Part shown: positions 4,809-13,480 of the stretch, piece after piece
Position numbering within the stretch: position 1 is the stretch's first letter
Layout: every line of letters begins with the position of its first letter
Assembly: GCA_016840425.1 (NCBI GenBank)
Contig: JAEOSI010000035.1
Location: forward strand, 1-13,722
Source: Candidatus Wukongarchaeum yapensis
Lineage (GTDB): Archaea > Asgardarchaeota > Wukongarchaeia > Wukongarchaeales > Wukongarchaeaceae
Length of the DNA stretch: 13,722 bases
Direction: 5' to 3'
Notes under the pieces: generated by a model
What the model was told of the DNA's origin: nothing
What the model saw: only the letters and a program-made list of their open reading frames with translations
Databases searched by the model: none
Program-made: the position numbers and the translations under genes

Positions 4809-5171
4809 TCATTCATGTGTTATGACTTCTATTCCCAGTTTCTTACATAATTGTTTTGTTTTTTCGTCTATGTGCCAAGTTACCATTACTTTTTGAGTTT
4901 TAACTTTTTTCTTTTTTTCATAGAAAAGTGACTTTGAGAAGAAGTCATTAACATCTTCTTCATACACATAATTTTTTATTTCGAATAGTACATGTTTTCC
5001 GCTTTGAGCGTAAACTTCATAGTGTACTTCGCACCCCGGATGGTAAAGTTCTCCTTCTCGATCCTTTATAATCACTGTCTCGACTTTCTTAATATCAATG
5101 TTCTTTGCCTGCAAAGCTTCATTAAAAATGCGCTTTTTCCTCCAAAGGTTCCAGATCAAAAAGCTACACAA
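4809..5171 (-). CDS. Small PD-(D/E)XK nuclease-fold protein or remnant
   Basis: Pattern EVHYEVYAQ-x5-LFEIK followed by a helix, V-M-V-T-W, and a terminal ..LGIEVI, resembling archaeal restriction-endonuclease-like domains. TTG start 9 nt after AAGGAG. The N-terminus may be degenerate. Confidence 0.5.
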   Translation of the reverse strand: MCSFLIWNLWRKKRIFNEALQAKNIDIKKVETVIIKDREGELYHPGCEVHYEVYAQSGKHVLFEIKNYVYEEDVNDFFSKSLFYEKKKKVKTQKVMVTWHIDEKTKQLCKKLGIEVITHE

Positions 5172-7415: not shown

Positions 7416-7772
7416 AAACTTTAAAAAAAGACACAATAAAACCATAAATCCTAAAGTTGTGGATCCTCCCTCTTTTAGAAACATTATATCACTCAAAAAA
7501 AACACATAAAAGCAAAAGAAAACTTAGAAATCCGAAAAATAAGCAAAAATCACCCTACTAAAAAAGAAAAAATTAAAAGCAACCTTTATCCCTTTCTTAA
7601 AACCATAGGGCCTAAAAACTTTTCTTCTCCATTTTAACGACTTTTCAGATTTTATTTTTCTTTTATCTGAAATAAATCTGTTAAAACATACTTTATCGCA
7701 TATGTTTTATTTTTGTTAAATACGCTACCTTTTTATGTGTCTTTTTATCGTATTTTTTAGGAGGAGTTTGAT

Positions 7773-8804
7773 ATGAGTTTTAAAAGTCCGACTTCAGACG
7801 ATGTTTTCAATCGATGGTTAGAAAAGGCTAAGGGTGGCTCTATTAAGAAACTTTATGACATGGATAAGGAAAAGGTTAGCGCTGCTGAATCCGTGAAAAA
7901 TGTCAATAAATCCGTTATTTTTGTTGCCGAAGTAGAAACTACTGCCAAAAAAATCGATGAAAAACCCATTAAACATCCTTTAACTTTTAAAAAAACTTCA
8001 GACATCGTGTTTTACAAGCCAGAATCCGCACAAGTATATGCAAATAAAAAGAGCGGAAAAGTAGAAGTACCGCTATTTGACACATTAAAAGAAGTAAAGT
8101 GTAAAAAATGCGGTGGAACGGGGAAAATAGTTTGTAAAGTTTGTAATGGTAAAGGACACCAAACATGTAAAACTTGCAAAGGTTCTGGACGTCTAAAGTG
8201 TGAGAAATGTAACGGTAGCGGTGCCCTTATCCATGAAGTAGCCGTTGTGGATAAAGAAGGGAAAAAAAGAAAAGAGCAGTTGAAACAAAACTGCCCCGAA
8301 TGTTTTGGCGAGCAGAAAACCATTTGCCCCACTTGCGGAGGATTGGGAGAACACCGTTGCGATGAATGTAAAGGGGTTGGAGCTCATCACTGTGATGAGT
8401 GTCGAGGCGCTGGAACACTTTTAGAATTTAAACAAGCGATTTTTCAATCACCAAAAGAAAAAGAAGAATACGCTGTACACGCTGAAAAACGCTATGAGTT
8501 CTTGAAAAAAGACATTCCAGAAGTTATGCCACTCGTGGCAGGAATAAAAATCAAATCTTCCGCAGAACTAACAAAAGACAAAATCGAACCAATACTAGGC
8601 TACTACAACGAAATTGTAGACAAACTCTTAAAAGACAGTAAAAACGAGTTCACAAAACTTGAAAAAGAAGACTTAGTGAAAAGCCCTATCCAAATGCTCC
8701 CACTTCTTCACTTACAATGCGAAGGAAAAAAAGACAAAAAATTCGACATCTTCTCAATAGGCACAGAAGACGGCTTCAGAGTCCTCGACAAAGGAGTACC
8801 CTAA
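7773..8804 (+). CDS. DnaJ-type zinc-finger protein with 8 CXXCXGXG-like motifs and no J domain (SSUH2-like)
   Basis: CKKCGGTG, CKVCNGKG, CKTCKGSG, CEKCNGSG, a spacer, then CPECFGEQ, CPTCGGLG, CDECKGVG, CDECRGAG, 11 aa apart within each group. No HPD motif. GGAGGAG RBS upstream. The SSUH2 label is from recalled similarity only. Confidence 0.75.
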   Translation: MSFKSPTSDDVFNRWLEKAKGGSIKKLYDMDKEKVSAAESVKNVNKSVIFVAEVETTAKKIDEKPIKHPLTFKKTSDIVFYKPESAQVYANKKSGKVEVPLFDTLKEVKCKKCGGTGKIVCKVCNGKGHQTCKTCKGSGRLKCEKCNGSGALIHEVAVVDKEGKKRKEQLKQNCPECFGEQKTICPTCGGLGEHRCDECKGVGAHHCDECRGAGTLLEFKQAIFQSPKEKEEYAVHAEKRYEFLKKDIPEVMPLVAGIKIKSSAELTKDKIEPILGYYNEIVDKLLKDSKNEFTKLEKEDLVKSPIQMLPLLHLQCEGKKDKKFDIFSIGTEDGFRVLDKGVP

Positions 8805-8854
8805 AAATGCTTAAATAACTCATACCTTTTCCTTTTTTTAAAAATATAAAAATA

Positions 8855-8920
8855 AGATAAAACTATTGTAAACACCCTTTAATTTCCAAGTTTGTTATAC
8901 TTTTTTCCGCTCTATTTTAT
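8855..8920. repeat. Dispersed intergenic repeat, copy A
   Basis: 54 of 67 aligned columns identical to 13414-13480, including a 16-bp exact core TTTAATTTCCAAGTTT. Confidence 0.75.
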
Positions 8921-9035
8921 CCTTGTCTGAGTAAAAAGTCTGAGAAAGTACGATCTCTAAAACTTTTAAAGGGATAATATCGTTTCTTTTTTAGTTTTGT
9001 TTTTCGTATTTTTATCTTCGCAAGACGCAAGAAGA

Positions 9036-9055
9036 CTCCATGCTAGAGCATGGAG
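9036..9055 (+). other. IS left-end subterminal hairpin CTCCATGC-TAGA-GCATGGAG
   Basis: Perfect 8-bp inverted repeat 20 nt inside the inferred cleavage site, as expected for a TnpA (Y1) recognition hairpin. Confidence 0.85.
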
Positions 9056-9114
9056 ATGAATTGCGGCGTGCTTAAATTAGAATTTGAACTATTAAAACTT
9101 GAGGTCTGTGGCCT

Positions 9115-10226
9115 TTGAAGGTTAAGAAGACAATCAAAGCAAAAATCGTGTATCTGACTAAAGTTAAACAACAGCTTCTTGAAGAAGAATACGATAATCT
9201 CCAACGCTTCCTAAAAGGCGAACCAGTGAAACTATACTCAGCTAACAAACAGCAAGCCAAACGATTCTACAAAATGATTAAACCTAACAAAGAGTATCCA
9301 ATATCCGTCAGGAAAGACCTCTTAAAAGTGGAACAAAGGGGCACTAAAATAGGTAAATATTGGGCAAGGATTCCTGTCGCAGGAAGAAGGGGGGAGTATG
9401 GGTTGCCATAAAACCTCACTGCCCGATAGAACCAGGAATGGAAATCTGCGAATCCAAACTATTCAAGAGGAAAGGAGAGCTTTCCCTCAATATAACCGTT
9501 CAGAAAGAGGTAGACACTCCTAAACTAGAACTAAATAACAAAACAGTCATAATAGCTTGTGATATCGGAGAAACAAACCCGTTAGTTTCTGTAGAGTTAT
9601 GGAATCAAGGGAAAAAGCGGGAAAACGCCCAGTTTCTAGGAGGGGAGATAAGGAGTGTCAGAGCGCATTATAACCACTTAAAGAAGCGAGTAGGTAGAAA
9701 GAAGATAAAACACGCAGTTAAGTGGATTAAAAAACACGTAGGAGACAAGGAGAAGAGAAAAGTAAACGACATCCTACACAAAGTAACAACAAAGATAGTA
9801 GATCGAGCTGAAACGCTCAAGAGGTCAGGATACGAAGCTGTCATAGTTTTCGGAGACCTTAAAAAAGTAAGACGTCCAAGGGTTAAAAGAAAAACAAGAT
9901 GCAAGAAAAACAACAGAAAAATACACACAATGCCCTCCTATAAAATAAAACACATGCTAACCTATAAAGCCCTATGGAAAGAAATCCCAGCAATCCCGTT
10001 AAACGAAGCCTATACATCCAAACTGTGTTGGAGATGCGGAAGCTTAAACACCGAGATCAGGAAAAGATCTTTCAGATGCAAAGAGTGCGGGTTAGAATAT
10101 AACCGAGACTTAAACGGAGCTATCAACATTGGGAACAGGCTTTTAGGCTACATGCTTAAGAGCAGGGCGTCCGTGAACATGCCCCAAACCTCCCCAGAGT
10201 ACATCGCTCCGAAAGGAGACTGTTAG
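9115..10226 (+). pseudogene. tnpB: TnpB RNA-guided nuclease, split by a 1-bp frameshift in a G6 run (9389-9394); 370 aa if repaired
   Basis: RuvC-I IACDIG (D 9561-9563), RuvC-II region IVFGDL, NEAYTS, zinc finger CWRC...CKEC, RuvC-III NRDLNGAINI (D 10107-10109). Adding one G gives ...GRRGGVWVAIKP. TTG start with GAGGT at 9101-9105. Confidence 0.93.
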
Positions 10227-10294
10227 CGTTTCAGAGAGCGAGGGAGGAAGCTCCCTGTGAAAGCTGGGAGTAGTTCACTTCCATTTTTCCTCTT
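10130..10294 (+). ncRNA. Predicted TnpB omega/reRNA: scaffold ending at TCAC 10278 plus ~16-nt guide TTCCATTTTTCCTCTT (5' end approximate)
   Basis: Known architecture: the scaffold overlaps the tnpB 3' end and right end, and the guide comes from the 3' flank. Hairpins seen: CTCC-GAAA-GGAG (10207-10218) and the right-end stem (10251-10270). Confidence 0.6.
10247..10278 (+). other. IS right end: guide GAAG, imperfect hairpin CTCCC...GAAA...GGGAG, cleavage motif TCAC
   Basis: GAAG/TCAC fit the IS608-type guide-to-cleavage-site pairing (guide positions 1, 2, 4 with site positions 2, 1, 4). Confidence 0.85.
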
Positions 10295-10709
10295 TCTTCG
10301 CATATTTTCGGGCAAATATTGCAAGTATTATGGCTAACCATTGGAGTGGTAGAAATAATTCGATGAAGCGTTCTGTACCATCTACAATTCCGTCTTTCAT
10401 ACCGAGTGTGACGAAAGCTAGTATGACTGAGATTAGACCGAATCCTGCTCCTATTGCTATTAAAAATTTTCCAAGAGAGAGGCGTTCCTTGCCTATTAAT
10501 ATACCGCCTAAAATAATCGTTATACCGCCAAGAGAAGCCAAAAATAAAATCACTAGAAGAAAACCTTTAAACACATCTTCATAGTCGGGATATTCATCTG
10601 ATAACCATTCTGTTACTTCTTCCCACATTTCAGTAGAAGCATACAAAGTAGTTAATAAGAATAATATTCCTGAAAGAAAAGCAAGAGAAACAGCTTTTTG
10701 ATACTTCAT
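10275..10709 (-). CDS. Hypothetical membrane protein (about 4 TM, Gly-rich helices); its stop codon is supplied by the IS right end
   Basis: Hydrophobic segments such as LASLGGITIILGGILIG and LGKFLIAIGAGFGLISVIL. The TGA stop is the reverse complement of 10275-10277. Confidence 0.85.
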   Translation of the reverse strand: MKYQKAVSLAFLSGILFLLTTLYASTEMWEEVTEWLSDEYPDYEDVFKGFLLVILFLASLGGITIILGGILIGKERLSLGKFLIAIGAGFGLISVILAFVTLGMKDGIVDGTERFIELFLPLQWLAIILAIFARKYAKKEEKWK

Positions 10710-10741
10710 GGTTCATCGGCACTATTTTTTGGAAAAATCGG

Positions 10742-10754
10742 TTTTAAATCTTTC
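10742..10754 (-). promoter_or_regulatory. Putative BRE-TATA (GAAAGA-TTTAAAA) for the membrane protein gene
   Basis: Purine-rich BRE directly followed by a TATA-like box, 33-39 nt upstream of ATG 10709. Confidence 0.45.
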
Positions 10755-10999
10755 TAAGAAAAAATTAGCGAAAATATTAAACCCATTGTAAAACTATTCA
10801 TTAAAGGTTTCACCATGTATCCTCTCAAAGATTCGAGTTGCTCATAGAAAAAACTTCTATCTTAAGCCCTTTCTTTACCACCAATATGATCATCCAAATC
10901 GTCAAATTGAAGGGATACTAAACCCGCCGAAAGAACACTATCACGTAAAGAAGCTTCCCTCCTCCTTTCAGACAAACAAAGCTAGTAGAATCGTTTTTA

Positions 11000-11064: not shown

Positions 11065-12509
11065 ATGGAAACATGGTCTTCAAGGCTTGGTTTTCTGCTG
11101 GCAGCCATAGGATCTGCTGTCGACTTAGGCAACATCTGGCGCTTTTCATCCGTAGTTGGACAGAATGGTGGAGGAGCCTATCTAATACCATACCTTCTCG
11201 CAGTCTTCTGCTTTGGCGTTCCTTTAATGATCCTTGAGCTGGCTGTGGGAAGGCATATAAAAGGAGATGTAGTCTCATCCTTTGGAAAGATAAGAACTTC
11301 ATTTCAAATCTTTGGCTGGTTGGTCTGCGCAATAGTTCTCTTAATCTTGAGCTACTACCTTGTAATAACAGGCTGGACCCTTGCCTATCTTATCTTTTAC
11401 CTCATGAATCTCGACGTTACTTTTCCAGAATTTACCTCTTCATATCAGCCGGTTCTATACTTTGTTTTCTCCCTGCTTGTGACAGGGCTGGTCGTCTCGT
11501 TAGGGGTAAGGAAAGGTATTGAGAAGATCGCGTCTATTATGATCCCATTTGCTTTAATCATCCTGATAGCCATGGCTGTATACTCTACCACCCTCTCAGG
11601 CTTCGGCGAAGGGCTGAGTTTTTTCCTAACCCCGATTTTTCAGTCCTTAGCGATCTCAAGATCTGGAGTGCAGCCTTCGGTCAAGCTTTCTTCTCTCTGT
11701 CAGTGGGCTTTGGGGTTCTTATCACCTACGGTGCCTACCTTGACAAAGATACCCGCATACCTCGCTCCTCGTTAATCATCGCCGTCTCAGATCTTATGAT
11801 TGCGATGTTAGCAGGTCTAGTAATTTTTTCCGTAGTCTTCACTTTTGGACTGGAGCCTACTGTAGGCTCAGAGCTTGCCTTCTCAACCTTGCCAAACGCA
11901 TTTGAAACCATGTCCTATGGTCGAATCCTTGCTATAGGCTTCTTTTTAGTTCTCTTTTTTGCAGCTTTGACCTCAGCCATATCGATGATGGAGGTAAATA
12001 CTGCAGCGGTTATGAAGGCTACAGGCATGTCTAGAAAAAGGACGAGTCTAATTCTGACAATATTCATCTTACTACTAGGATTACCATCTGCTTTAAGTTA
12101 CAGTTCACTTAGTCTTAAAATAGTTGGTGTGAGGATCCTTGATTTGATGGATGAAACCGTGGGAACGATGGGGCTCCCTATCACTGCACTTCTTACTTCT
12201 GTGATTTTCACATGGTTTCTAGAAAAGCGTGTACTAAGCTCTCAGATTGGTGATTCAAAGGGTTGGTCTTTGTTGGTCCTTCCGGCAACCAAATATGTGA
12301 TCCCTACTGTTCTGATAGTTATAACGGCTTCGAGGCTACTTTTTGGCTTGGATTTCGAGGGCTGGCACTTTATTCCAGGAATCGAGTTTATAGGTATCCT
12401 AGCTCAGGTGTTGGCGATCCTTTTGATACTGGCATTCCTTCTTTCAATGAATATAATCATAGAACGGTTTCTGAAGTATCGAAATCTACACCCACCCCGA
12501 AAACTTTAG
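11065..12509 (+). pseudogene. Neurotransmitter:sodium symporter (NSS/SLC6/SNF) family transporter, split by a 1-bp frameshift near the C4 run 11630-11633; 481 aa if repaired
   Basis: TM1 GSAVDLGNIWRF, QNGGGAYLIPY, TM3 SYY, TM8 FAALTSAISMME. Adding one C gives [40 protein letters not shown], the canonical TM6. Confidence 0.93.
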
Positions 12510-13413: not shown

Positions 13414-13480
13414 AGATAAAACAATTGTAATTCATGTTTAATTTCCAAGTTTCACATACTTTTTTGCGCTCTGTTTTTAT
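13414..13480. repeat. Dispersed intergenic repeat, copy B
   Basis: Same orientation as 8855-8920, 54 of 67 columns identical. Confidence 0.75.

Follow-up and report, generated by a model that had tools for sequence, protein, structure and literature searches.

We found that a transposable element in the genome of the Asgard archaeon Candidatus Wukongarchaeum yapensis lies precisely at the end of a convergent gene, over its predicted former stop codon, and that the right end of the element supplies the stop codon with which this gene now closes. The arrangement recurs in the same genome, where at least 11 genes, including those for aIF5B and aIF2-alpha, end in a stop codon donated by a transposon. 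The window, by which we mean the whole stretch of 13,722 nt that was analysed (GenBank accession number JAEOSI010000035.1), is contig C228 of a MAG of 2.16 Mb in 277 contigs, with a GC content of 38% and a completeness of 92%.

The element occupies positions 9016-10278 of the window on the forward strand and is a non-autonomous member of the TnpB-only elements of the IS200/IS605 family (IS1341 type). Read on this strand, the flanking sequence ...CGTATTTTTAT runs up to 9015, the element begins with CTTCGC at 9016 and ends with ...GTAGTTCAC at 10278, and the sequence continues with TTCCATTTTTCC. The features of the region are as follows.

7773 to 8804, forward strand: left neighbour, oriented convergently to the host gene; its product carries a DnaJ-type zinc-finger domain.
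9011 to 9015, forward strand: target motif TTTAT (core TTAT at 9012-9015), outside the element; its reverse complement A-TAA-A would be the old stop codon of the convergent gene with its context.
9016 to 9058, forward strand: left end, with a linker of 16 nt followed by the guide AAGA (9032-9035) and by the hairpin CTCCATGC-TAGA-GCATGGAG (9036-9055), whose stem pairs perfectly over 8 bp.
9115 to 10226, forward strand: tnpB pseudogene with a TTG start (MKVKKTIK...) and the stop codon TAG at 10224-10226, from ORFs and Pfam.
10247 to 10278, forward strand: right end, composed of the guide GAAG (10247-10250), the hairpin CTCCC...GGGAG (10251-10270), the spacer TAGT and the cleavage site TCAC (10275-10278).
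10279 to 10298, forward strand: right flank, the would-be guide segment of the omega-RNA of this copy, judged from its position adjoining the right end; it lies antisense to the final codons of the host gene.
10275 to 10709, reverse strand: host gene, encoding 144 aa with about four hydrophobic segments and matching no Pfam family.

The left-end hairpin folds as DNA at -10.8 kcal/mol (z = -3.8), and by the pairing rule of IS608 the guide AAGA predicts a target of the form TTxT, where TTAT was observed. For the right end, folding of the single sequence gave an ambiguous result (z = -1.3). The pairing of its CTCCC/GGGAG stem is kept across subfamilies, between which changes in the stem compensate each other, and the layout of the right end is common to 40 right ends in the genome. 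Judging from the family and from its position, the right end should also form the 3' end of the omega-RNA scaffold; no Rfam family was matched in the window. A tRNA scan of the window gave nothing, and no RNA runs holding the locus were found. Three types of end in the genome agree with the IS608-type guide rule, namely AAGA with TTAT, AAGT with TTAA and GAAG with TCAC. There are no terminal inverted repeats and no target-site duplication, since a comparison of empty and occupied sites showed zero duplicated bases, and TTTAT or TTTAA lies 5' of every mappable left end. In all the features testable here, the element is an ordinary member of the IS200/IS605 family.

In correction of the preliminary description, the tnpB copy in the window is a pseudogene. 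Its Cas12f1-like TNB domain was detected by Pfam with E = 3.6e-21. A 1-nt deletion in a G-run near 9393-9398 divides the gene into the ORFs 9115-9411 and 9360-10226. The frameshift is evident from comparison with the intact copies on contigs C265 and C172 (385-399 aa), and the deletion recurs in contigs of other sequencing runs, which have no gap there. The element has no tnpA. The one intact tnpA in the assembly (C70:7637-8003; Pfam Y1_Tnp, E = 1e-40) adjoins a tnpB; from the left end of the element that holds the two genes, the predicted target is TTAC. This locus (L021, C70 7470-8568) comprises tnpA followed 3 nt later by the start of tnpB, with an IS608-like guide AAAG and a TTAC 14 nt upstream, and the contig ends inside tnpB.

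The IS608 element of Helicobacter pylori, on which the structural understanding of the IS200/IS605 family is modelled, uses the target TTAC, the right-end site TCAA and the guides AAAG and GAAT. IS608 (outlined in PMC7290912 and PMC3597680) and the present element are alike in having no inverted repeats, no target duplication and subterminal hairpins, in inserting 3' of a fixed tetranucleotide, and in the pairing of a 4-nt guide, located 5' of each hairpin, with positions 1, 2 and 4 of the cleavage site. They differ in that the present element has no tnpA, resides in an archaeal host and uses other tetranucleotides. By the same arithmetic as that described below, the complements of the two IS608 sites (G-TAA and T-TGA) are stop codons as well, and no stop-codon pattern has been reported for IS608 in the literature searched.

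To the base, both boundaries of the element were fixed by its copies, by the right ends counted in the genome and by an empty site in a sister species, which bears out the limits 9016 and 10278 that the preliminary description had drawn from the guide rule. Four full copies (on C228, C265, C172 and C216; 79-84% identical) end in ...GTAGTTCAC and diverge from the next base onwards. The same point of divergence was observed for 40 right ends verified by an iterated nhmmer profile, and likewise for 6 ends of a further subfamily and 1 diverged end, which gives the 47 right ends counted in the genome. A first scan for right ends with a 12-mer and 2 mismatches was too loose; matches such as C268:5796, C153:647 and C174:14518 were not element ends on checking and were dropped. 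In metagenome contigs, loose ends accumulate at 10278/10279. On the left side, TTTTAT or TTTCAT stands immediately 5' of the element in the copies and GCATTAT in one mini-element (C110) of a related 250-nt family. A second group of elements starts 3' of TTTAA. The target motif is kept directly 5' of the left end in the copies of the window's family (family A) and in those of the mini-element, and it is present at the empty site.

This empty site was found in G001, a sister species of the same genus, at locus L002. The flanks 7700-8970 and 10279-10778, which are 1308 nt apart in the window, are 68 nt apart in G001; the identity is 89% for the left and 82% for the right flank, and the match of the right flank begins exactly at 10279. 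When the junction was rebuilt by removing the element and aligned pairwise with G001, the alignment was ungapped across the join, with GGAAATAAAAA-TAC against GGAATAAAAACTAC. The sister-species site thus has the junction predicted for the empty allele, with an in-frame TAA at TTAT. Over the same 12 bases G001 reads AAA TAG GAA TAA, so that TAA is in frame at the same place and the gene stops two codons earlier. Since the orthologue ends at this earlier TAG, we infer the ancestral stop codon of the 144-aa gene from the alignment. No contig joins 9015 to 10279 in four metagenome runs (region 8600-10700), in which the contigs are short and fragmentary and not informative on absence, and neither an empty allele nor a second target of the guide was found elsewhere in the own assembly.

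A left boundary at 9008, by which ATTTTTAT would lie inside the element and a longer gene would have been cut short, draws on the fact that the same 8 bases precede three of the four full copies. We give this reading next to no credence, as the guide AAGA predicts TTxT exactly at 9012-9015, the mini-element on C110 has GCATTAT, so that TTAT alone is common to the copies, and the homologues of the 144-aa protein have their C-terminus at the same position. The reading with the boundary at 9016 holds because the empty site keeps TTTTTAT beside the gene end, ungapped across the join.

The host gene now ends in GAA AAA TGG AAG TGA, in which the stop codon (10275-10277) and the third base of the last codon, G (10278), are bases of the element. 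Removal of 9016-10278 by script restores GAA AAA TGG AAA TAA. The tail of the protein, RKYAKKEEKWK*, is the same with and without the element, and the change of the last codon from AAA to AAG leaves the protein unaltered. In-silico removal thus verified the claim that TAA was replaced by TGA with the protein end ...EEKWK unchanged. The complement of the right-end site TCAC is G-TGA and that of the target TTA-W is W-TAA. The orthologue in G001 is 81% identical to the host gene, and there is a paralogue in the own genome. As for the intergenic position, the element sits at the far end of an original spacer of about 210 nt between the left neighbour and the host gene, a spacer that held about seven TTAT/ATAA sites.

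The proposed arithmetic, from W-TAA to G-TGA, was seen at two further loci as pairs of empty and occupied alleles. For aIF5B, ACT TAA in G001 (empty) corresponds to ACG TGA here (occupied), and for a B12/radical-SAM gene AGT TAA in G001 corresponds to AGG TGA here. The expectation that the wobble change is usually synonymous was borne out for TTAT-type targets but not for some of the TTAA type, where it gives Ser to Arg in the B12/radical-SAM gene and, by inference, Phe to Leu in the HD gene. Insertions of this kind cannot be truncations of longer genes, because the target always holds TAA in frame on the strand of the gene, which is therefore the old stop codon. Among the other loci, the region of the in-stop insertion on C59 was not found in G001, and that on C7 has a weak paralogous match alone there.

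It is not remarkable by itself that a single insertion lies on a stop codon, since 3.65% of the non-coding TTAT sites in this genome are antisense TAA stops and the genome holds 447 antisense TTAT stops in total. The family-wide count was far above this level. Using a set of 1811 non-overlapping ORFs of at least 100 aa, obtained by ORF calling and not with a gene finder, we found that at 11 of the 47 right ends the TGA of the element terminates an antisense ORF that is intact and at least 100 aa long. These ends are located on contigs C59, C109, C110, C164, C228, C239, C258, C7, C70, C177 and C216; that on C216 is at the contig edge, and its 353-aa gene was seen at the orthologous locus of G001. 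Ten of the 11 genes were checked against Pfam and comprise an HD hydrolase, two radical-SAM enzymes, aIF5B, LplA, two inositol-1-phosphate synthases, aIF2-alpha and two genes without a family; the eleventh, on C177, encodes 104 aa.

With motifs ranging from TTAW to TTTTTAW, antisense stops make up 1.0-2.4% of all target sites and 2.9-4.8% of the non-coding ones, against which 11 of 47 gives P = 7.5e-8 (for 2.9%) and P = 1.0e-5 (for 4.8%). The enrichment over background sites of the TTAT type that the preliminary description called for is thus present (P about 1e-5 to 1e-7). A local comparison gave the same picture: 11 right ends are in the stop and 6 lie within 1-100 nt after an antisense stop, that is, 11 of 17, where 18-24% would be expected in the stop (P = 3e-5 to 4e-4). 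Compared with the remaining target sites in the 100 nt that follow gene ends, stop codons are used about three times as often, and this excess persists when the motif is extended to 7 nt. In five further cases the insertion lies in the last codons of a gene, whose reading frame then continues for 27-125 nt inside the element. Suitable targets are abundant in this AT-rich genome, as TAA is the stop codon of 62% of the ORFs of at least 100 aa and is followed by AA in 35% of those cases, and 410 of the 1811 ORFs (23%) offer a TTTAW target on their own stop codon.

These counts bear on the reading that the insertion in the window is a one-off coincidence, by which the element happened to hit one TTAT site among several in the 210-nt spacer and no family pattern exists. 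The seven or so TTAT/ATAA sites of the spacer and the many antisense TTAT stops of the genome speak for it. We consider it very improbable in view of the 11 of 47 ends in stops (P = 7.5e-8 to 1.0e-5) and the additional 4-5 among 31-32 ends in other Asgard genomes, while the Pfam matches show that the in-stop ORFs are genes.

The pattern was also present outside this genome. In ten other Asgard genomes, 4 of 31 right ends, or 5 of 32 if one borderline end is included, are at stops (13-16%); the background of the enrichment was computed for the Wukongarchaeum genome, and the related genomes are not independent samples. According to Pfam, the genes concerned encode an Arf/Roc-type GTPase, Pth2, a glyoxalase-like protein, a DUF4760 protein and an FG-GAP protein. 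A search with the exact 33-nt consensus of the right end, with one genome per species, gave matches in Hadarchaeota, Methanomicrobia, Methanosarcinales, Methanocellales, Thermoproteota, Thermoplasmata, Bathyarchaeia and others. Among 31 near-identical ends from outside the Asgard archaea, one is at a TGA stop and one more splits a stop codon as TA|G. The stop-codon pattern is therefore real in this lineage but is no fixed property of the element group.

Two side observations were made in these searches. The 33-nt consensus ending in GTAGTTCAC is present without any mismatch in MAGs of at least 8 archaeal lineages, which points to a wide horizontal spread of the element group. At L028 (an uncultured archaeon) and L110 (Methanomicrobia), TA of the flank and G of the element together form TAG and close ORFs of 244 and 141 aa, respectively; read from the sequences, this appears to be a second way of rebuilding a stop codon, with the insertion point one register earlier.

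How the excess at stop codons arose can be considered in the following way. Judging from the family, a Y1 transposase acting in trans would insert the element as single-stranded DNA 3' of TTTAT. As the target core TTA-W reads W-TAA on the complementary strand and the right-end site TCAC reads G-TGA, a landing on the complement of a W-TAA gene end turns TAA into TGA and alters the last wobble base alone. Such landings are harmless to the protein, the stop being restored by the right end. The right end then bears the stop codon of the gene and would be hard to delete, so that in-stop copies would probably outlast the others and, by survivorship, accumulate to 20-30% of the older copies. On balance, we think it likely that the pattern reflects this coincidence of motifs together with the survival of harmless insertions, and not active aiming.

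Survivorship is favoured because several observations relate the in-stop position to age and persistence. Three insertions are common to G001 and thus predate the split of the two species; each of them lies in a stop codon. Of the in-stop copies, three consist of nothing but a right-end stub (121-277 nt). When the copies were divided by nearest-neighbour identity, 2 of 17 younger and 9 of 30 older copies were in stops, a difference that is not significant (Fisher P = 0.28). None of the 10 copies of the youngest family, the mini-elements of about 210 nt, is in a stop, and outside the Asgard archaea the figure is 1-2 of 31. The genome is a fragmented MAG in which identical young repeats tend to break contigs, and the sample of copies accordingly leans to older ones. 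Elements of the TTTAA type were also found in the opposite orientation, directly after co-directed TAA stops, as the harmlessness model predicts. Against survivorship, the roughly threefold excess over nearby sites is not obviously predicted by harmlessness, for insertions at those sites also leave the protein intact.

This excess, persisting with the 7-nt motif, speaks for an active preference, by which the transposase or the single-stranded target favours W-TAA-AA at gene ends, or TnpB homing retains and spreads copies whose guide lies in a conserved coding end and not in rapidly diverging spacer DNA. The window's family, with 4 of 6 copies in stops, and the 13-16% in other Asgard genomes point in the same direction. 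We nevertheless regard an active preference as unlikely. The consensus-matching ends of other phyla and the youngest mini-elements do not show it, the window copy carries a broken tnpB, and neither the short population contigs nor the own assembly gave an empty allele on which homing could act. The "landing rule" of the preliminary description stands as an enrichment in this lineage and is better not read as aiming, given the 1-2 of 31 ends in other phyla and the 2 of 17 young copies.

A broader form of the idea is that the T-Y-A-N sites of IS608-type elements are stop-codon mimics, W-TAA for the target and N-TGA for the right end when read on the opposite strand, that provide a built-in safe harbour in gene ends, with the threefold excess reflecting a real preference or TnpB-driven retention. 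We hold this to be doubtful. If it were true, a guide in a conserved coding end would keep matching empty alleles across the population, and stop codons would be a general, previously unnoticed niche of TnpB-bearing transposons.

A duplicated pair of genes may be mentioned here. A family-A copy lies in the stop codon of both members of a paralogous pair of inositol-1-phosphate synthase genes (C7:10726, C216:3929 and, in G001, L040), and one of these insertions is common to the sister species. Either a joint duplication of gene and element or repeated independent landings would account for the pair. Guide-directed homing was rejected for it, as the flanks differ too much.

The condition of the elements in this genome resembles that of the haloarchaeal tnpB-only elements of IS1341 type and the PATEs of Haloquadratum walsbyi, which comprise many diverse and mostly broken copies in genomes where intact tnpA genes are rare or absent, together with derivatives lacking genes and stubs reduced to the termini, both produced by internal deletion (PMC3119063). 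This genome likewise contains mini-elements of about 210 and 250 nt and fused left and right ends of 45-50 nt. The fused ends at C160:803-847 and on C104 (reverse strand, about 5105-5150) read TTTTAA|CTT...GGGAGTAGTTCAC, have no interior and resemble the 52-bp terminal-only PATE of Haloquadratum (PMC3119063); the two fused-end copies on C160 have an identical left flank and opposite orientations. Stop codons are not mentioned as insertion sites in the Haloquadratum walsbyi paper (PMC3119063), whereas here they hold a fifth of the ends.

The position of tnpB adjoining the right end also corresponds to that in the IS200/IS605 elements for which homing by TnpB and omega-RNA has been described (ISDra2, Karvelis 2021, PMC8612924; Meers 2023, PMC10055086). 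By analogy, the TAM would be the target motif, the flank would supply the guide, and an empty allele with TTTAT followed by TTCCATTT... would be the cleavage target. Gene ends are not discussed as sites in either PMC8612924 or PMC10055086. More generally, no description of stop-codon landing or stop regeneration by IS200/IS605 or TnpB elements was found in the literature searched, which was mostly without subscription journals.

Phages and islands that integrate into tRNA genes carry a substitute for the displaced 3' end of the gene, which thereby stays whole. Those integrators employ site-specific recombinases and an identity of tens of bases; unlike them, the present element replaces 4 bases, as a by-product of its cleavage site.

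The arrangement has several consequences. The ends of gene and element overlap by 4 bases, and most annotation pipelines will misplace one or the other. It offers a reason at the level of sequence for the high copy number of IS200/IS605 elements at low cost in compact genomes, and right-end stubs would persist because they hold the stop codon of a gene. Every in-stop copy places the would-be guide of TnpB antisense to the final codons of its host gene, which bears on homing and possibly on the regulation of that gene. The question is raised whether the tetranucleotides of the cleavage sites have been shaped by selection for harmless landing or by the chemistry of the transposase alone.

Some minor observations concern the window and its sister locus. 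The gene for an SNF protein (sodium:neurotransmitter symporter) at 11065-12509 is split into the ORFs 11065-11775 (profile positions 2-113) and 11703-12509 (264-518), and from the sequence it is probably either frameshifted or affected by an assembly error. A 64-nt spacer segment is repeated in the window at 8855-8918 and 13414-13477 with 81% identity. In G001, the gene at L107, which is the orthologue of that at C109:1123, ends in TTG TGA and is followed by scraps of a right end (GGAAG...ATAGC...TTCAC) that do not make up a recognisable one; this may be the fossil stop codon of a decayed element or stub.
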